NCBI GenBank assembly: GCA_016432625.1
Contig: CP066697.1
Coordinates: 151,113 to 215,112, forward strand
DNA from: Candidatus Berkelbacteria bacterium
Lineage (GTDB): Bacteria > Patescibacteriota > UBA1384 > 2-12-FULL-50-11
DNA length: 64,000 nucleotides
Reading direction: 5' to 3'
Of the stretch, positions 9,387 to 55,955 are shown one piece after another. The position numbers and the translations under genes are program-made. A model generated the notes under the pieces. That model had not been told where the DNA came from, ran no database searches, and saw only the letters and a list, made by a program, of their open reading frames with translations. The number at the start of each line of letters is the position of its first letter. The first letter of the stretch is position 1.

Positions 9387-9425
9387 AAAGCCCGAGACAC
9401 GACGTCCCGGGCTTTCCTCTTTTTC
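9387..9425 (+). terminator. Rho-independent terminator after the 240-aa ORF
   Basis: AAAGCCCG ... CGGGCTTT stem followed by CCTCTTTTT. Confidence 0.6.
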
Positions 9426-9427
9426 TG

Positions 9428-9500
9428 AGCGGTAGACCGGTCTCGAACCGGCGACCTTATCCTTGGCAAGGATACGCTCTACCAACTGAGCTACTACCGC
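9428..9500 (-). tRNA. tRNA-Gly (anticodon GCC)
   Basis: Acceptor GCGGTAG/CTACCGC, anticodon stem TATCC/GGATA with loop TTGCCAA, T-arm GCCGGTTCGAGACCGGT. Confidence 0.85.
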
Positions 9501-17030: not shown

Positions 17031-18008
17031 ATGACAGATGTTTTAGTTATCGGTTCAGGTATGGCAGGGCTTTCAGCAGCGATTTACGCTGCTCGTTATA
17101 ATTTGGAAACGCTTGTTATTGGTCATGAGTTTGGCGGTGCCACCTCAACTGCTTGGACTATCGAGAACTATCCCGGCTACGTCTCAATCGATGGCTACGA
17201 CCTAATGATGAAGGTTAAAGAGCAGGCAGAAAAGACCGGCGCCAAGATTGTCACGGACCGAGTTATTAAACTCGAAAAGAAGAACGATCACTTCGTGGCT
17301 CAAACTTTTGAGGGCGAAATGTACGAAACTAAAACTATTATTCTTGCCTGTGGCGCGGCGCGAAAAAAAATGGGACTGGCACGTGAAGATGAGTTCGCAC
17401 TCGGAAAAGGCGTCCACTACTGCACTACCTGCGACGGCCCGCTCTACAAAGGCAAAACCGTCGCCGTAATCGGTAGCGGCGATTCGGCGGTCAAGGGTAT
17501 AAAGCTCGCCGTACAGTACGCTGAGAAAATTCACTGGCTAATCCGTGGTGAAGTTATTAAAGCCGAGCCGTTCAATTATGAAAAAGTTAAACACTACTTC
17601 GGCGACAAGATTATTGTTCACTACAACACGTCCATTACCGAGCTTTTGGGCGAGAAACGACTTAACGCCGTCAAGCTTAATACCGGTGAGACCCTAGAGC
17701 TTGATGGCTTGTTCGTTGAGATCGGCGCTCTTCCTGAAGTTGAGCTCGCTCACCACTTAGGCGCGGCGCTCGACGAGTTCGGTTTTATAAAAGTAGACAA
17801 CATGATGGAGACTAACGTTGATGGCATCTACGCTGCCGGCGACGTGACGAACTTTTTCGGCCACTTTAAGCAAGACATTACCGCCGCGGCAATGGGTTCA
17901 GTCGCCGCCACTAGCGCTTTTAAGCATATTCAACACGCCCCAACAGTCCAGGAGGCGAAAGCCACGCCCGCCGAGCAGCCATCAACGGTTAGTAATTTGA
18001 ATAAGTAG
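17031..18008 (+). CDS. trxB: Thioredoxin-disulfide reductase
   Basis: VIGSGMAGLSAAIYAAR FAD motif, redox-active CTTCDG, VIGSGDSAV NADPH motif. Confidence 0.9.
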   Translation: MTDVLVIGSGMAGLSAAIYAARYNLETLVIGHEFGGATSTAWTIENYPGYVSIDGYDLMMKVKEQAEKTGAKIVTDRVIKLEKKNDHFVAQTFEGEMYETKTIILACGAARKKMGLAREDEFALGKGVHYCTTCDGPLYKGKTVAVIGSGDSAVKGIKLAVQYAEKIHWLIRGEVIKAEPFNYEKVKHYFGDKIIVHYNTSITELLGEKRLNAVKLNTGETLELDGLFVEIGALPEVELAHHLGAALDEFGFIKVDNMMETNVDGIYAAGDVTNFFGHFKQDITAAAMGSVAATSAFKHIQHAPTVQEAKATPAEQPSTVSNLNK

Positions 18009-18054
18009 TGGGTCGGGTGGGGATTTCCTCCGCTGCGCTCCGGTATCCCCACCC
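18008..18054 (-). repeat. tRNA-Lys 3'-end copy 1 (short form) abutting the trxB stop codon
   Basis: GTGGGTCGGGTGGGGAT (18008-18024) is identical to the tRNA-Lys 3' end read on the plus strand. It pairs with ATCCCCACCC at 18045-18054 around a 20-nt CGCT-rich loop. Confidence 0.75.
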
Positions 18055-18065
18055 TCTTGGCCAAG

Positions 18066-18090
18066 TGCAAAAACCGCCCATGAGGGCGGT
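18066..18090 (-). terminator. Rho-independent terminator (minus strand)
   Basis: ACCGCCC-tcat-GGGCGGT followed by TTTTT when read on the minus strand. Confidence 0.6.
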
Positions 18091-18100
18091 CTCTGCATTG

Positions 18101-18196
18101 GTGGGTCGGGTGGGGATCTCGCGCCTTCGGCGCTTGAAAGCTCCTTCGCTCACGCTCTGTCGCTATCGAACCCACTTCGTGCGTTCTCTCCCCACC
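18101..18196 (-). repeat. tRNA-Lys 3'-end copy 2: pseudo-tRNA 3' fragment with a roughly 48-nt structured insert in the T-loop
   Basis: Minus-strand reading is GTGGGTTCGAT[AGCGACAGAGCGTGAGCGAAGGAGCTTTCAAGCGCCGAAGGCGCGAG]ATCCCCACCCGACCCAC. Removing the bracketed part restores the T-arm and acceptor 3' strand of the neighbouring tRNA-Lys. Confidence 0.75.
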
Positions 18197-18203
18197 ACAA
18201 ACG

Positions 18204-18224
18204 AAAAAGCTGCCAAATGGCAGC
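18204..18224 (-). terminator. Rho-independent terminator directly after tRNA-Lys
   Basis: GCTGCCA-tt-TGGCAGC followed by TTTTT on the minus strand. Confidence 0.6.
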
Positions 18225-18235
18225 GCTTCCGTTTG

Positions 18236-18307
18236 TGGGTCGGGTGGGGATCGAACCCACGACACACGGCTTAAAAGGCCGTTGTTCTACCACTGAACTA
18301 CCGACCC
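18236..18307 (-). tRNA. tRNA-Lys (anticodon TTT)
   Basis: Acceptor GGGTCGG/CCGACCC, anticodon stem ACGGC/GCCGT with loop CTTTTAA, T-arm GTGGGTTCGATCCCCAC. Confidence 0.9.
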
Positions 18308-18724
18308 TGAGCTCTGAGCGAGCGCAGGAGTGGAACCGGAAGGCGCGGAAAATGCTGTTATTTTTCGGCATTTGCAGCGCCGAGGGATTCCTTCAAGTTA
18401 TTTTACGGGAAACATGCCTTTTCCTCAATTAGGAAACGGATCAAGAAACGGTTGAGCTTTTGACAGTAGGTGCTATCATTGTTAGACCTTTGCGCTTCAA
18501 CGACGCAGTGCAAGGGAAATCGGAGGGTATCCAATCGTGTCATTTAATAGAAGCAATCTCGTCGCTCATGCGTCCAACAGGACGACCTTCTCCTTCAAGG
18601 GAGGGAACCGCCGACCGGCACCGAACTGCTCGCCTCTGAGCAATCAGCGTCGGCTGCAGAACATCAACGGCGGCAAACGCCAGCAGGCGAAGAAGTAGAG
18701 GCGAATCCGCTTCACACCAAAGAA

Positions 18725-39961: not shown

Positions 39962-40044
39962 GCCGGGATGGCGAAATGGTAGACGCACTAGCTTTAGGAG
40001 CTAGCGGGAGCAATCCCATGGAGGTTCAAGTCCTCTTCCCGGCA
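39962..40044 (+). tRNA. tRNA-Leu (anticodon TAG), type II
   Basis: Acceptor GCCGGGA/TCCCGGC, anticodon stem CTAGC/GCTAG with loop TTTAGGA, long variable arm, T-arm GGAGGTTCAAGTCCTCT. Confidence 0.85.
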
Positions 40045-40045
40045 C

Positions 40046-40124
40046 TGAACCCAAGGTTCACTACGAACCGCCGAAGGCGGTGAAGTGCCAAGCACGTTAG
40101 TGCGAGCGGTCCTCTCCCAGGCAC
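40046..40124 (+). repeat. Hairpin-rich segment ending in a degenerate copy of the tRNA-Leu(TAG) 3' end
   Basis: GTCCTCTCCCAGGCAC (40109-40124) matches GTCCTCTTCCCGGCAC (40030-40045) at 14/16 positions. Between them lie TGAACC-caa-GGTTCA and ACCGCC-gaa-GGCGGT hairpins. Confidence 0.5.
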
Positions 40125-40141
40125 GGACGAGTTAGGTTAGA

Positions 40142-47192: not shown

Positions 47193-47469
47193 TATGACGC
47201 CGCAAAAGTTTTCGAACGCAGTTTTGGCCTTGAGCGTGCTAGTTTTGCTTTTGGGTATCTCAACATATTGGCAAAGTAACGCGGAGCCAAATCTTGACTC
47301 AAAGACCTCGGTTACAGAGCGGGACGCCGCACTTTCGAGAGCTAGAATCGGCGACGGCACGTATAGTTTCTCAACTAGCTTCATCCCAGGGCTTGGCTAC
47401 ATCGGCTCTGCCGAGCAGACCAGACAAAAATTTAAGCAAGATAATAAAGGAGCGATAACCAACCAATGA
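47185..47469 (+). CDS. Small membrane-anchored protein embedded in the paralogue array
   Basis: 94-aa ORF overlapping both neighbours (8 nt and 4 nt). One TM helix (AVLALSVLVLLLGI). Confidence 0.45.
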   Translation: MINMTPQKFSNAVLALSVLVLLLGISTYWQSNAEPNLDSKTSVTERDAALSRARIGDGTYSFSTSFIPGLGYIGSAEQTRQKFKQDNKGAITNQ

Positions 47470-48170
47470 AGCGTGCTGCTAGTCTGTCCGTCATATTGCT
47501 AGGGATACTAGGTTTAGTTCTGGTTAATTCGCAACAAGTGAGCGCTCAAAGTAGCGACTACACAACCAAGTGGGACGCAAATAGTCTAATCGTTGGGACG
47601 TTGCACCGCCCGATTACTGGTAACTCCGAGGGCGATTGCGTTAATGGCACGCTTCTTGGTAATTACGGCGACCCGGCCGGATCAGAAATCGCCTTCGGTA
47701 TTAATCAGTGGACCGTCAAGGGGCGTATCACTGGCTCGACAAAATTTAAAGAAGTCTGGTCGGCACCGCAGTTGCCTTATGCTTACACCTACGGCGGCAC
47801 TTGGAATGGCAGCTGCCAAAACCTTAAGCTAATTGTCTCCGGCAACAACAGCATGACTGATTGGCTGATGGGCTACATTTCTAATGAAACATATACGCGG
47901 AGCGTAATGGCTTTTCGCTCAGTTGGTATCTCGCAAGGTATCAATAATAAGGTTAACGTCGACGTTTCTCGGGCTGACAACATCGGCAAAACGACGTCAT
48001 GCCAACGCCAGAACAACTGTTTGTATGCCACTGGCGGCTATGGCTGGACGGCTGCGCACGAAATCGATGACGCCCATGCCTGGAAGCCGATCAATGTTGG
48101 TATATTAATGCCTCTCAAGTGGACGATCAGTGGTGATATCTGCGACGGTGGAGACACTAGATGCGATTAA
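47466..48170 (+). CDS. Secreted six-cysteine protein, paralogue 2 of 3
   Basis: Signal peptide MKRAASLSVILLGILGLVLVNSQQVSAQ. Shared blocks SEIAFG, KFKEVW, TTSCQ and C-terminal GDTRCD. Confidence 0.6.
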   Translation: MKRAASLSVILLGILGLVLVNSQQVSAQSSDYTTKWDANSLIVGTLHRPITGNSEGDCVNGTLLGNYGDPAGSEIAFGINQWTVKGRITGSTKFKEVWSAPQLPYAYTYGGTWNGSCQNLKLIVSGNNSMTDWLMGYISNETYTRSVMAFRSVGISQGINNKVNVDVSRADNIGKTTSCQRQNNCLYATGGYGWTAAHEIDDAHAWKPINVGILMPLKWTISGDICDGGDTRCD

Positions 48171-48901
48171 AAATCATGGCTAATAGATTAGGCATTTTGA
48201 GGGTCTTGGTGGCGGTGCTAGTCCTTTTGGTGGGGTCAATCTTAGTCGGCGACGTGCCGGCCGTAGCACAAGCCAGTGACTACACAATCAACTGGCAAGC
48301 CACTGATCTAATCGTCGCCCGACTTAAGAAACCGAATTACGCACATAACCAGGCGGAGTGCACAACTTGGCGGCTTGACCCCCTTGGTACTCCCATCGAT
48401 TCTGAAGTGGCTATAGGTGTCCATAAGTGGACTGTCAGAGGCGAGCTTCCAGGCTCAGCAAGATTCAAAGAAATCTGGAGCACTCCCGCATTACCGAGAG
48501 CTTTCACATACACAGGTGATTTCATCAATGGCGAATGTCGAAACGGTCGCTTGATTATCGATGGCTTGGCAGGTCCTAACGACTGGCTGACCGGATATCT
48601 CAATGTAAGTAACCTTGGAGTCTCAGCCATGGAAATAAGAACGGTGGGTGTCACAACTGAGGTCGGACATCACAATCTAGACCCAGGCAGTGTTCGCAAC
48701 ATCGGCAATACTACATCATGTCAGGCGAGTGGGGGCGATACTGATCGCTGTACCTACACGACCGGTGCTTATAGTTGGCTCACTCTCCACAGGTTTCAGT
48801 CGGGAATGGATAAGAAGCACATGAATCTCGGTACGATGATCCCGCTCAAATGGTCTGTCAGCGGTACCTTCTGTGAACCTGGCGACAATCGCTGCGACTA
48901 A
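48161..48901 (+). CDS. Secreted six-cysteine protein, paralogue 3 of 3 (alternative start ATG at 48176)
   Basis: Signal peptide ...VLVAVLVLLVGSILVGDVPAVAQA. Shared blocks SEVAIG, RFKEIW, TTSCQ and C-terminal GDNRCD. Confidence 0.6.
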   Translation: MRLKIMANRLGILRVLVAVLVLLVGSILVGDVPAVAQASDYTINWQATDLIVARLKKPNYAHNQAECTTWRLDPLGTPIDSEVAIGVHKWTVRGELPGSARFKEIWSTPALPRAFTYTGDFINGECRNGRLIIDGLAGPNDWLTGYLNVSNLGVSAMEIRTVGVTTEVGHHNLDPGSVRNIGNTTSCQASGGDTDRCTYTTGAYSWLTLHRFQSGMDKKHMNLGTMIPLKWSVSGTFCEPGDNRCD

Positions 48902-48915
48902 CGGGCGAAAAATCT

Positions 48916-48999
48916 GCGGTCCCAACGGGAAGTCTCGCAGCTGAGCTGCTCGGAAAGCTCCTACGCTAACGCTCCGTCGCTACCGAACCCGCGGGTTCG
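48916..48999 (-). repeat. tRNA-Glu 3'-end copy with the same structured T-loop insert as the tRNA-Lys copy 2
   Basis: GCGGTCCCAACGGGA (48916-48930) equals 49053-49067 inside and next to tRNA-Glu. Minus-strand reading is GCGGGTTCGGT[AGCGACGGAGCGTTAGCGTAGGAGCTTTCCGAGCAGCTCAGCTGCGAG]ACTTCCCGTTGGGACCGC. Confidence 0.75.
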
Positions 49000-49053
49000 A
49001 CACCGCGAGCAGGTAGTAAACACGGCCCGGAAATTCCGCGCCGTGTTCCCTAG

Positions 49054-49127
49054 CGGTCCCAACGGGAGTCGAACCCGTGATTTCCGGGATGAAAACCCGG
49101 CGTCCTAGGCCACTAGACGATGGGACC
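49054..49127 (-). tRNA. tRNA-Glu (anticodon TTC)
   Basis: Acceptor GGTCCCA/TGGGACC, anticodon stem CCGGG/CCCGG with loop TTTTCAT, T-arm ACGGGTTCGACTCCCGT. Confidence 0.9.
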
Positions 49128-49227
49128 AATTTACGAAAGCCTAACAGGTCAATTTTACTGAATACGCCACCAGTTATCAATGCTAAGATGATCGCCAATA
49201 ACCGACTTTCTTGGTAATAATTAGTTG

Positions 49228-50082
49228 ATGAGGGGGTTGCTACTTTTTTCGATCGCCGTTTTAGCCGCTGCGGTAGGAGTGGTTTTATTTCTTGTGTCAT
49301 ACGGCGGAAAGATCGCCGGGACGGAGCAACCTAATAGTAAAGTTGTCGCGGCGGATATACCTATAAAAACGCCAGAAACACGCCGTCGCGCGGAAGTGCC
49401 CATCCTGATGTACCACTACATTCGGGATTATAAGAGCGAAACGGACCCGCTCGGCGTCCAACTATCTGTTTCACCGGCGGCGTTTAGGGCTCAGCTGCAA
49501 GCCCTAAAGCGCGACGGCTATTCGACGATTAGTCTATCGGAATTCGCCAAAGGTAATTTTGGCTCTAAGCCGATCGTCCTGACTTTTGATGACGGGTACG
49601 AGGACCACTTCACTACAGCGTTACCGATCCTGCAGGAACTCAACTACACTGCTACCTTTTTTATCGTCAAAAATTTCATTGGGCGTCCTGGTTACTTGAG
49701 TGCTGCGCAAATAAGCATGCTACAGGACGCCGGTATGGAAATAGGCGGCCATTCCACAAATCACGCTAACCTCTCGAAAATGACTTATGAGAAGGCCGTC
49801 GCCGACATCTCCTCTAGTCTAGCTGGTCGCGACAACGTCTTTTCTTACCCCTCAGGGCAGTATACTTACGAGACCCTGGACGTAGTTAGCGGCCTGGGAG
49901 TAACGGCTGCGGTGACAACCGAACAGGGCGTCGCCACAACCGAAACCAACCTGCTGGAGCTGCCGCGTATTAGGGTAAAAGAGAAGACTGATCTAATTAG
50001 CAAGATCGCCGAGCTTAGAGACATCCAAGTACCGTCGAAGGCTTCACAGCCACCGGCCGCTGAGGTAGAATTACAGGAGTAG
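49228..50082 (+). CDS. Membrane-anchored polysaccharide deacetylase (NodB homology domain)
   Basis: PILMYHYI, VLTFDDGYEDHF, GGHSTNH motifs. ATG at 49228 (the track start at 49225 is a TTG). Confidence 0.8.
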   Translation: MRGLLLFSIAVLAAAVGVVLFLVSYGGKIAGTEQPNSKVVAADIPIKTPETRRRAEVPILMYHYIRDYKSETDPLGVQLSVSPAAFRAQLQALKRDGYSTISLSEFAKGNFGSKPIVLTFDDGYEDHFTTALPILQELNYTATFFIVKNFIGRPGYLSAAQISMLQDAGMEIGGHSTNHANLSKMTYEKAVADISSSLAGRDNVFSYPSGQYTYETLDVVSGLGVTAAVTTEQGVATTETNLLELPRIRVKEKTDLISKIAELRDIQVPSKASQPPAAEVELQE

Positions 50083-53578: not shown

Positions 53579-53965
53579 TGGTGGACCTGCCGGGAGTTGA
53601 ACCCGGGTCCGAGAACCTACGAACGAAGACGTCTACAAGCGTAGAAAGTTTAAAGTCTTAGCAGCTGGGCTTGAGAGCTTTCAAAAAACCCGACTGAGCA
53701 ACATCTTATTCTGAGGAGTTGTACCGATGTGCGCACAATCCCGGTTCTACTTTTTGACGCCTCGTTACCTTAGTAGAAGTCAGGTGACGAAACGGCATTG
53801 GCCGTTAGGCTAATGCTGTTGCAAAAGAAGGAGTCGCGAACAAGTTCGCAACACGAGCTTTTGCAGTTTCAAATGCGTTTGCACGTATTTGTTTTGCGCT
53901 CTAAGGCAGGCGCGTCCGCTTGCAGTCCTCGCTGTAAACGTTCCCGTCGAAGCCAGTACAGGCCC
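53579..53965 (-). ncRNA. ssrA: tmRNA (SsrA), about 387 nt, CCA encoded
   Basis: 5' GGGCCUG pairs with 3' CAGGUCC-ACCA, giving a G3:U pair. 3' T-arm GGACCCGGGTTCAACTCCCGGCAGGTCCACCA. The internal tag frame ends ...ATPSFATALA-TAA. Confidence 0.9.
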
Positions 53966-55552: not shown

Positions 55553-55753
55553 AACACTAAAGTAACTTATTCTTCGTGGGGATACCACGGGTGGCAAAGT
55601 CCCTCGCGAGAGCTGTCGCCGCTTTACGGAGCAGAGTGGTGCGAAGCGAAGAAGAAGATGTCCTGAGCCGCTGGCCAGGGCATCTTCATTAGGAACCAAT
55701 CCTCAAACGGTCGACTATTTAACCTCCTAATGCTATACTTGCCCTGTTTTTAC

Positions 55754-55833
55754 GCCCCCGTAGCTCAGTGGATTTTACGCGCTAGCGCTTCAATCCCCTT
55801 CGCTACTTCGGCAAAATGAAACAATAGTATTCT
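55754..55833 (+). repeat. Duplicate of the first 21 nt of tRNA-Arg, followed by a hairpin and a CGCT-rich tail
   Basis: GCCCCCGTAGCTCAGTGGATT occurs at 55754-55774 and again as the tRNA 5' end at 55834-55854. The first copy is followed by GCGC-ta-GCGC TTCAATCCCCTTCGCTAC. Confidence 0.75.
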
Positions 55834-55907
55834 GCCCCCGTAGCTCAGTGGATTAGAGCGGGACGGTTCTAACGTCAAGGTCGCAGGTTCGAATCCTGCC
55901 GGGGGTA
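55834..55907 (+). tRNA. tRNA-Arg (anticodon TCT)
   Basis: Acceptor GCCCCCG/CGGGGGT (G1:U72), D-arm GCTC/GAGC, anticodon loop GTTCTAA, T-arm GCAGGTTCGAATCCTGC. Confidence 0.75.
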
Positions 55908-55955
55908 CTACTTCTACTTGACAAGCTCGGCATTTCCCCCGATTGTAGTGTGTAG

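Follow-up and report, generated by a model that had tools for sequence, protein, structure and literature searches.

Why should the first 21 nucleotides of a transfer RNA (tRNA) gene stand a second time a short way upstream of the gene itself? The question is raised by a locus in Candidatus Berkelbacteria (assembly GCA_016432625.1, contig CP066697.1, positions 151,113 to 215,112 of the forward strand; this whole stretch of 64,000 nucleotides, in whose own coordinates positions are given, is referred to as the window). The 21-mer GCCCCCGTAGCTCAGTGGATT occurs at 55754-55774 and again at 55834-55854, 100% identical (21/21) and with a start-to-start spacing of 80, just as an initial annotation of this DNA had described. 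The second copy forms positions 1-21 of an intact tRNA-Arg(TCT) on the + strand (found by ARAGORN; 62.2 bits with the Rfam tRNA model). It spans the acceptor stem's 5' strand, U8-A9, the D-stem's 5' strand and the D-loop, in which it stops with one base left before the D-stem's 3' strand. Beyond the upstream copy the sequence runs on, again as the initial annotation had read it, as TTAC-GCGCTAGCGC-TTCAATCCCCTTCGCTAC, where GCGCTAGCGC is the palindrome GCGC-TA-GCGC. The window holds an 80-nt insertion at this site, composed of 59 nt of non-local sequence and a 21-nt target-type duplication. Whether the repeat is in addition the footprint of one event in a lineage-specific process that adds structured units at the ends of Berkelbacteria tRNA genes is, in our judgement, evenly balanced.

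L001 and L002, two more independent assemblies from Logan (reached through the flanking HD-domain protein), contain the same Arg locus base for base. Since three independent assemblies agree, the repeat is not an artefact of assembly, and that explanation is ruled out.

The empty site is found in L004, a fully syntenic 12.8-kb contig of a relative whose neighbouring DUF1003 protein is 89% identical to that of the window. Here tRNA-Arg(TCT) is uninterrupted: the junction reads ...CCTGTTTTTAT|GCCCCCGTAGCTCAGTGGATTAGAGC with nothing between, and the gene reads on as GCCCCCGTAGCTCAGTGGATTAGAGCAGG. The window flank that precedes the displaced copy shares homology with the upstream region of L004 (score 36 versus a null of 13.5). 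The 59 inserted bases resemble neither the window nor the L004 upstream region in either orientation (p = 0.6-0.8). Because the site is empty in L004 and the insert is non-local, the difference is an 80-nt insertion and not a local tandem duplication. The latter was the case that the initial annotation had set against its own proposal, together with the advice to look for empty sites; that comparison places the Arg duplicate at the flanks of an insertion absent from L004, with only the 21-mer repeated. Tandem duplication of the local promoter region was considered as a separate candidate and rejected, the similarity between the insert and the L004 upstream region suggested by MAFFT not being significant. 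Near the more distant DUF1003 relatives (L005-L007, L056, L057) there is no tRNA-Arg, hence no outgroup.

The displaced upstream copy retains the ancestral promoter and flank, and the downstream copy belongs to the intact gene. In L004 the counterpart of the -10 position is TAAAAT. Transcription of tRNA-Arg in the window would now begin at the old promoter, giving a ~85-nt leader for RNase P to cut off.

Read towards the gene, the locus consists of the displaced copy (21 nt), 17 nt containing GCGCTAGCGC, an inverted copy (21 nt), 21 A/T-rich nt and the tRNA. The inverted segment AATCCCCTTCGCTACTTCGGC (55792-55812) agrees with the reverse complement of the 21-mer at 15 of 21 positions, a level reached by 0 of 20000 shuffles and 0 of 1081 genomic 59-mers. 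What had been annotated as a 'CGCT tail' and taken for a core shared with other loci is mainly this inverted copy; the core motifs and the hairpin P1 of the units described below are absent. As RNA, the 80 nt are predicted to form a long imperfect hairpin (-21.6 kcal/mol, z = -3.1), in which the displaced fragment would be held within the 5' leader. In the minimum-free-energy fold of the whole precursor the displaced GCCCCCG competes for the 3' acceptor strand, and sequestering of the displaced copy by the hairpin may be functionally relevant. We also asked whether the inverted arm is the 5' end of a different tRNA, or else a minus-strand tRNA gene; no cloverleaf fits, by inspection or by ARAGORN.

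Such a structure could have arisen by an independent accident of replication or repair, a template switch or fold-back with filler DNA, unrelated to the units found at the tRNA-Lys, tRNA-Glu and tRNA-Leu genes. Perfect direct and 15/21 inverted copies around a GC palindrome are the pattern of quasi-palindromes and template switching, the covariance models find no homology of the Arg locus to the family formed by those units, and the 59 nt are unique in the available DNA. The direct copy is, however, exact (21/21) and the inverted one is not (15/21, mismatches clustered), and this unequal fidelity argues that the two were not copied from the same template at the same time. The other 38 nt are non-local, several other tRNA-end duplications with insertions occur in the neighbourhood and in relatives, and two family members show in-register similarity to the 34 nt beside the displaced copy. 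We consider an accident of this kind rather unlikely.

The other units of the window (Table 1) bear directly on this choice. Partial tRNA copies at the Lys (17 and 18 nt), Glu (15 nt) and Leu loci, also reported by the initial annotation, are real, and four of the nine tRNA genes in the 64-kb window are affected. In the sense of the tRNA, the layout is the tRNA, a T-arm-like 5' arm, an insert of ~48 nt and a tRNA copy running from the T-loop (position ~58) to the gene end. Lys2 consists of GTGGGTTCGAT, a degenerate core, the P2 hairpin (18121-18133) and an 18-nt copy of the tRNA 3' end (18101-18118); it has orthologues in three relatives (L008, L009 and L010), and 38 nt are common to Lys2 and the Glu unit at 89% identity (E = 3e-8). 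In Lys3, which is without the family core and absent from L008, the inverted arm GGGTGGGGAT (18045-18054) measures 10 nt and is separated by a spacer of 20 nt from the copy of the tRNA-Lys 3' end, which is 17 nt long (18008-18024). The Glu unit terminates in a 15-nt copy of the tRNA 3' end (48916-48930), and the distant relative L012 has no unit at this site. The Leu unit has P1 at 40067-40081, P2 at 40092-40103 and the tail GTCCTCTCCCAGGCA at 40109-40123 (13/15 versus the tRNA 3' end). The initial annotation had seen one plus-strand layout at Lys, Glu and Arg, whichever end of the tRNA was duplicated, and a mirror image at Leu. There is no such strand rule: Lys and Glu look alike in a plus-strand view because both tRNAs lie on the minus strand, and every canonical unit, that of tRNA-Leu included, lies downstream of its tRNA in the sense of the tRNA.

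Table 1. Features of the Arg locus and of the tRNA-end units in the window.
Feature	Position	Strand	Basis or remark
Promoter-like site TCGACT-17-TATACT (TG-extended -10), ancestral tRNA-Arg promoter	55711..55739	+	Homologous to the upstream region of the relative
Displaced copy of tRNA-Arg positions 1-21, at the ancestral place of the gene start	55754..55774	+	21/21; upstream flank aligns with L004
59-nt inserted sequence, absent from L004	55775..55833	+	Unique within the window and the fetched loci
Palindrome GCGCTAGCGC, 4 nt (TTAC) from the displaced copy	55779..55788	.	Candidate equivalent of P2 and GTAA linker on the minus strand
Imperfect inverted copy of the 21-mer, AATCCCCTTCGCTACTTCGGC, pairing with the displaced copy (predicted leader hairpin)	55792..55812	+	15/21
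Intact tRNA-Arg(TCT), first 21 nt = second repeat copy	55834..55908	+	ARAGORN, Rfam
Lys2, canonical-type unit downstream of tRNA-Lys(TTT) (18235-18307, -)	18099..18175	-	Untrained match of model R1, E = 6.5e-4
Lys3, short-form unit	18006..18056	-	E = 0.09, scored mostly on the tail
Glu unit downstream of tRNA-Glu(TTC) (49053-49127, -)	48914..48992	-	Untrained match of model R2, E = 0.0036
Leu unit downstream of tRNA-Leu(TAG) (39962-40045, +), tRNA sense	40052..40126	+	Untrained match of model R1, E = 0.003

Two of these loci have further features of their own. In the 5' leader of tRNA-Lys (window 18308-18405, read on the minus strand) the -10 element TAAAAT lies ~93 nt upstream of +1, versus 15-29 nt in four relatives; the window leader thus has ~70 nt extra, and no duplication of the tRNA 5' end goes with it. 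Its tRNA-proximal part, CGCGCCTTCCGGTTCCACTCCTGCGCTCGCTC, matches the reverse complement of the Lys2 core (p = 0.0015) and could pair with Lys2 across the tRNA. This antisense core fragment, seen in the window only, indicates that family-related DNA can sit upstream of a tRNA in antisense. The tRNA-Glu gene is flanked by three consecutive hypothetical genes (234, 246 and ~285 aa; window 47466-50082), with a 257-aa relative (41%) just upstream; these are apparently a lineage-specific paralogous family, and the 246-aa member has 4 matches at E <= 1e-30 among 5.8 billion proteins.

The Lys, Glu and Leu units form a genuine family, which is present also at tRNA-Gly in a relative and in other Berkelbacteria and Patescibacteria. 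The consensus unit reads arm, TTCGAC-TGCGA, P1, GAGAAGTGGA, P2, (G)TAA, then AT and the tRNA 3' end, the tail extending from T-loop position ~58 to the gene end or 1-5 nt into the trailer. Repeat lengths are 15-21 nt overall (Lys 17-18, Glu 15, Gly 17-18, and 19-21 in a further locus, L053). A covariance model built from seven members (R1) matches, untrained, the Lys units of L009 (3e-4) and L008 (6e-4), in addition to Lys2 and the Leu unit of the window, and a second model (R2) matches the Glu unit. All covariance-model matches lie downstream of a tRNA in sense orientation. The end formed by P2 and the linker, next to the displaced copy, is conserved; the end by the functional gene is variable and often starts with a terminator hairpin.

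The three relatives named above were found through the adjacent thioredoxin-reductase gene (88%, 85% and 80% protein identity, the last being that of L010). In all three a unit lies downstream of tRNA-Lys, and its tail is the 3' end of that genome's own tRNA-Lys even where the tRNA has changed. Taken over tRNA-Lys loci of four relatives, tails follow the sequence of each tRNA, and four different tRNA-Lys sequences are matched exactly by unit tails. Compared with window 18006-18307, L010 (11024-11238) has tRNA-Lys together with its unit turned round with respect to the thioredoxin-reductase gene; even so, the unit follows tRNA-Lys downstream, and the unit tail shares a C-to-T change of the tRNA, which argues that unit and tRNA move and change together. 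In GCA_022843855.1, tRNA-Lys(TTT) has one unit and tRNA-Lys(CTT) has two in tandem. In Berkelbacteria RIFCSPLOWO2_01_FULL_50_28 a unit lies between tRNA-Leu(TAA) and tRNA-Val(TAC), and a further unit is found in a third metagenome-assembled genome (MAG). The relaxed pattern CGACTGCGAGCN{7,13}GCGAGAAGT gives mostly chance matches in GC-rich genomes, the real ones occurring only beside tRNAs in Patescibacteria. The exact window-type core AGCGNNNGAGCGNNAGCGNAGGAGCNTTC has no match in the genome or metagenome contig collections, among which the source genome is evidently not included.

Two occurrences deserve separate description. The RIFCSPLOWO2_01_FULL_50_28 unit (L045 3793-3883, the same in L030 and L035) has spacers of 9 and 4 nt and no terminator, in the manner of a tRNA within an operon; its tail ATCCCCACCTCGGGCA fits neither neighbouring tRNA and resembles tRNA-Lys tails. 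Upstream of the unit in a Patescibacteria MAG (L055), positions 1-69 are a run of N that leaves the tRNA partner unreadable, and the next 2.2 kb contain no open reading frame (ORF) of at least 110 aa (table 11).

The units are structured. In P1 and P2, 93% of alignment cells are paired, 8 of 11 pairs are changed on both sides, 0 of 500 shuffles are as good and slid controls collapse; on the tRNA-sense strand G.U exceeds A.C by 5:1. Common three-way-junction folds are predicted, and the canonical 5' arm pairs with the start of the tail. These properties would suit functional tRNA-like small RNAs (a minihelix with an expanded T-loop and a mimic of the 3' acceptor strand) kept matched to their tRNAs by gene conversion or selection, the Arg hairpin then having a role in regulation or processing. 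The unit inside the tRNA-Leu/tRNA-Val operon and the tails that follow four tRNA-Lys sequences exactly point the same way. Most units, however, lie behind a strong terminator-like hairpin, P1 is lost in the window units (the Leu unit being listed with P1 at 40067-40081), gains and losses of units separate close relatives, units also accumulate in tandem, no Rfam family matches and the origin of the copies is left unexplained; we hold functional RNAs to be a quite improbable explanation. With Rfam 15, only tRNA and transfer-messenger RNA (tmRNA) reach the gathering threshold in the window, and permissive scans of the Arg locus and of the canonical two-unit locus return noise. A hammerhead-like core (CUGCGAG...CGAGAAG) was rejected, being one base short of the consensus and without an Rfam match.

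Insertion is polymorphic at further sites, as the initial annotation had proposed to check. In the window (9400-9430), L009 and L010, tRNA-Gly(GCC) is followed directly by its terminator. In L008 (1951-2108) the same tRNA is followed by 142 nt, a second ACCGGTCTACCGCTCCA (a 17-18-nt copy of the 3' end) and only then the ancestral terminator; the insert consists of two tandem units, and the tail that closes the proximal unit, GGTCCCGTCTCTCGCTCAA, is tRNA-like but foreign. Presence and absence are reversed at Lys3, which is found in the window and not in L008. Tandem stacking is seen also in L053, where all three copies read ...GGCCCACAA, with the gene trailer CAA... and not CCA, extending 3-5 nt past the gene. 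The L009 tail likewise carries the gene trailer GTA in place of CCA, and the CCA that follows Lys2 and the L010 unit is part of a homologous native trailer and terminator. Tails that reproduce the gene trailer must have been copied from DNA and not from mature tRNA, and templating by mature, CCA-bearing tRNA is rejected as a general rule.

The same tails bear on RNA-mediated insertion, by target-primed reverse transcription in the manner of short interspersed elements (SINEs) or from a tRNA-primed cDNA, homing to tRNA genes. Duplications of 15-21 nt are within the size range of target-primed reverse transcription, the copy-proximal 3' end is conserved with a variable or truncated distal end (Lys3, Arg), and CCA follows some tails; against this stand the trailer-derived tails of L053 and L009 (CAA, GTA), the native CCA of Lys2 and L010 and the lack of a reverse transcriptase among the scanned window ORFs. 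We know of no RNA-mediated tRNA-homing insertion system in bacteria, and we regard this route as very improbable. Compared with SINEs, long interspersed elements (LINEs) and R2-type elements, the units are alike in duplication size, in a conserved structured 3' module with variable or truncated 5' extents, in being non-autonomous and in site specificity; they differ in having no A-tail, in the reverse transcriptase, of which none was found, and in tails that copy gene DNA including the trailer.

Does the Arg insert belong to this family? It lies beside a tRNA, is bordered by an exact 21-nt terminal copy that starts in a tRNA loop and is polymorphic, the site being empty in L004 and the native flank continuing beyond the displaced copy. 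The similarity to the Lys element, which the initial annotation had noticed, is 17/21 with one gap for GCGCTT-CAATCCCCTTCGCT (Arg) against GCGCTTGAAAGCTCCTTCGCT (pairwise p = 0.003-0.007); as a single pair it is nominally significant, but the corresponding similarity to Glu is not (p ~0.1-0.27) and the covariance model is blind to it. An anchored comparison was made over the 34 nt adjoining the tRNA-derived copy, the P2-linker members being too divergent for MAFFT. It gives p = 0.0016 for Lys2 (19 of 7526 in a genomic null) and p = 0.004 for L043, and ~0.01 after correction for seven comparisons. The match between Arg and L043 shares TTAC-G-CGCTA..GCG-C, which is the linker and P2. Lys3 is built like Arg: its inverted arm is the complement (10/10) of the beginning of the copy, from which it is separated by ~20 nt of GC-rich spacer. 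On these sequence comparisons the Arg insert is probably, on balance, a truncated and inverted short-form member.

A number of observations weigh against placing the Arg insert in the family and against the process behind it. R2 does not find the conserved core (TTCGAC-TGCGA, P1, GAGAAGTGGA) at Arg, and the family covariance model gives E > 10 for Arg over the whole window; a search of the Arg locus alone (96 nt) yields at best 0.3 bits (E = 0.28), in the expected register. Smith-Waterman alignment with 13 family sequences reaches p = 0.035 at best and on the minus strand only, and the anchored comparison gives 0.05 for Lys3, 0.06 for Leu, 0.17 for L010 and 0.27 for Glu. Arg is the sole case seen that is upstream, duplicates a 5' end and aligns in antisense. 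No second copy of the 59-nt insert exists in the 64-kb window or in any fetched locus, and a single empty site is available for Arg, so that L004 may instead have lost the insert by recombination between the repeats; such a loss would still need a prior insertion. For the family as a whole, units share no conserved left end, terminal inverted repeats are not seen, and neither the 20 large window ORFs nor the Pfam hits of the flanks include a recombinase, transposase, Cas1 or reverse transcriptase. The proposal of an oriented element flanked by a target duplication holds for Lys, Glu and Leu, which are one oriented family bordered by tRNA-end copies, and is borderline in homology for Arg. What stands firm at Arg is a recent insertion polymorphism; its link to the unit family is suggestive.

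If the link is accepted, a lineage-specific process would place small non-coding structured units at the ends of tRNA genes, with canonical units downstream of tRNA-Lys, -Glu, -Leu and -Gly, and the Arg insert would be a 5'-truncated form retaining the copy-proximal hairpin and linker. A hypothetical trans-acting enzyme would make cuts staggered by 15-21 bp next to a motif of ATCC type, and gap repair would duplicate the interval. Only duplications that reach the gene end would leave an intact tRNA and survive. With ~17 nt separating the T-loop from the 3' end and ~21 nt separating the D-loop from the 5' end, it is at these two loops that insertion would be survivable, and such a survival filter would explain why T-loop sites in sense and D-loop sites in antisense are seen. 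The opposite orientation at Arg may be due to the likeness of the antisense D-loop, AATCCAC, to ATCCCCAC, the target normally offered by the T-loop/T-stem junction.

A direct repeat at a gene end, with the gene rebuilt, is also what integrative elements leave behind. The repeats could be attL/attR-type scars of a mostly deleted element, either a tyrosine or serine recombinase island or a tiny trans-mobilised one, that carried its own tRNA end. The T-loop is reportedly a known integrase sublocation, and the canonical copies span the T-loop to the 3' end. In L012 a serine recombinase island abuts the tmRNA gene, and two tails unlike the neighbouring tRNA (L008 Gly unit 1 and L045) indicate that a tail can travel with its unit. 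Partial duplication of a tRNA up to the gene end is the classic footprint of integrative elements, in which a tRNA-terminal direct repeat brackets foreign DNA and the gene is restored to function, with 9-23 kb between the repeats in described examples (PMC9897764). The gene-end repeat and the restored gene are both present at Arg; between the repeats, however, there are 59 nt and no multi-kb cargo, and the scans made reveal no recombinase. More generally, the repeats enclose only 59-142 non-coding nt at several independent loci with no recombinase gene nearby, a double-stranded circle of 80-160 bp is implausible as a recombination substrate, and tails that fit many tRNAs exactly would need a separate specificity for each element-borne attP. 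The halves of the T-arm stand ~50 nt apart in the units and offer no recombinase core site, the units are stacked and have a conserved structured core, and the 5'-end, D-loop location at Arg is atypical. The core is moreover missing from 2.9 million viral contigs. Scars of this type are, we believe, an improbable source of the repeats.

By analogy, integration by casposase/Cas1 may be the nearest precedent for the units. The casposase of A. boonei produces a 15-bp duplication overlapping the 3' end of tRNA-Pro and needs a T-loop segment (PMC5137440). Common to casposon integration, CRISPR spacer integration and the units are a long duplication from widely staggered cuts (proposed ones, in the case of the units) beside the T-loop and the addition of each new unit next to the gene, which yields a polarised succession of repeat, insert and repeat, as at tRNA-Lys. 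The casposon duplication, in contrast, lies mostly downstream of the tRNA (5 bp overlap), and the element is large, has terminal inverted repeats and encodes Cas1 and PolB; the units have neither inverted repeats nor coding capacity, the duplication is 15-21 nt, and no cas1 is present among the scanned window ORFs (64 kb of a ~770-kb genome). MITEs (miniature inverted-repeat transposable elements) and the REP/BIME, RPE, Correia and ERIC repeats are short, non-coding, hairpin-forming, dependent on an enzyme in trans and polymorphic in presence (PMC2229807, PMC10969869), traits common to the tRNA-end units. MITEs differ in their terminal inverted repeats, duplications of 2-10 bp and varied sites, as against one conserved end, 15-21 nt and tRNA ends only. 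At Arg, the ends of the insert, TTACGCGCTAG... and ...CAATAGTATTCT, have no inverted-repeat relation, and the duplication is 21 nt, not 2-10 bp.

Partial tRNA duplications beside mobile DNA are well known already. In the tyrT operon of E. coli, 178-bp repeats carry the 3'-terminal 19 nt of tRNA-Tyr; as with the units, these are tandem repeats downstream of a tRNA, each ending in a copy of its 3' end, but they are a trailer duplication at a single locus, with no family across tRNAs or genomes and no covarying hairpins. The combination described here, non-coding units of 60-140 nt with conserved, covarying structure, restricted to tRNA ends, with 15-21-nt duplications, tandem stacking and a distribution confined to one lineage of the Candidate Phyla Radiation (CPR), was not found in Rfam or in searches of the literature. 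A bolder reading, which we advance tentatively and think doubtful as it stands, is that these are undescribed non-autonomous structured mobile elements of Berkelbacteria/Patescibacteria that home to tRNA loops (T-loop in sense, D-loop in antisense) with an unusually long staggered duplication (15-21 bp) by which the gene is rebuilt, and form polarised arrays, moved by a hypothetical enzyme, perhaps Cas1-like, HUH-type or a reverse transcriptase, or else a new class of tRNA-like RNA, with Arg as a truncated, inverted member that differs between two close relatives.

tRNA genes are classic landing sites of large mobile elements, and bacteria with very small genomes are thought to be poor in mobile elements. 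The units suggest that gene-less elements of 60-140 nt can act likewise at the tRNA genes of ultra-small CPR bacteria. If mobile, they would point to an enzyme that cuts tRNA genes with a 15-21-bp stagger, reminiscent of Cas1/casposase at the root of CRISPR; if RNAs, they would be a new class of tRNA mimic. Partial tRNA copies can mislead the annotation of tRNAs and the recognition of genomic islands in MAGs, and filled and empty sites are usable as strain markers.

The tmRNA gene near the Arg locus shows variation of its own. In L012 (GCA_022843855.1; 16312-18266) a serine recombinase gene (Resolvase/Recombinase/Zn_ribbon_recom) followed by TraG-like genes extends from the tmRNA 3' end, forming an integrated element, and in L004 (8230-9506) the interval from tmRNA to the ABC transporter contains two small ORFs more than in the window. 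The window tmRNA (53579-53965) has an unusually long predicted tag of 25 residues (ANAFETAKARVANLFATPSFATALA), of which the L004 variant ends AAPALAPAFA. The L012 tag given by ARAGORN looks mis-called, and a window-like tag sequence is visible upstream in the DNA.

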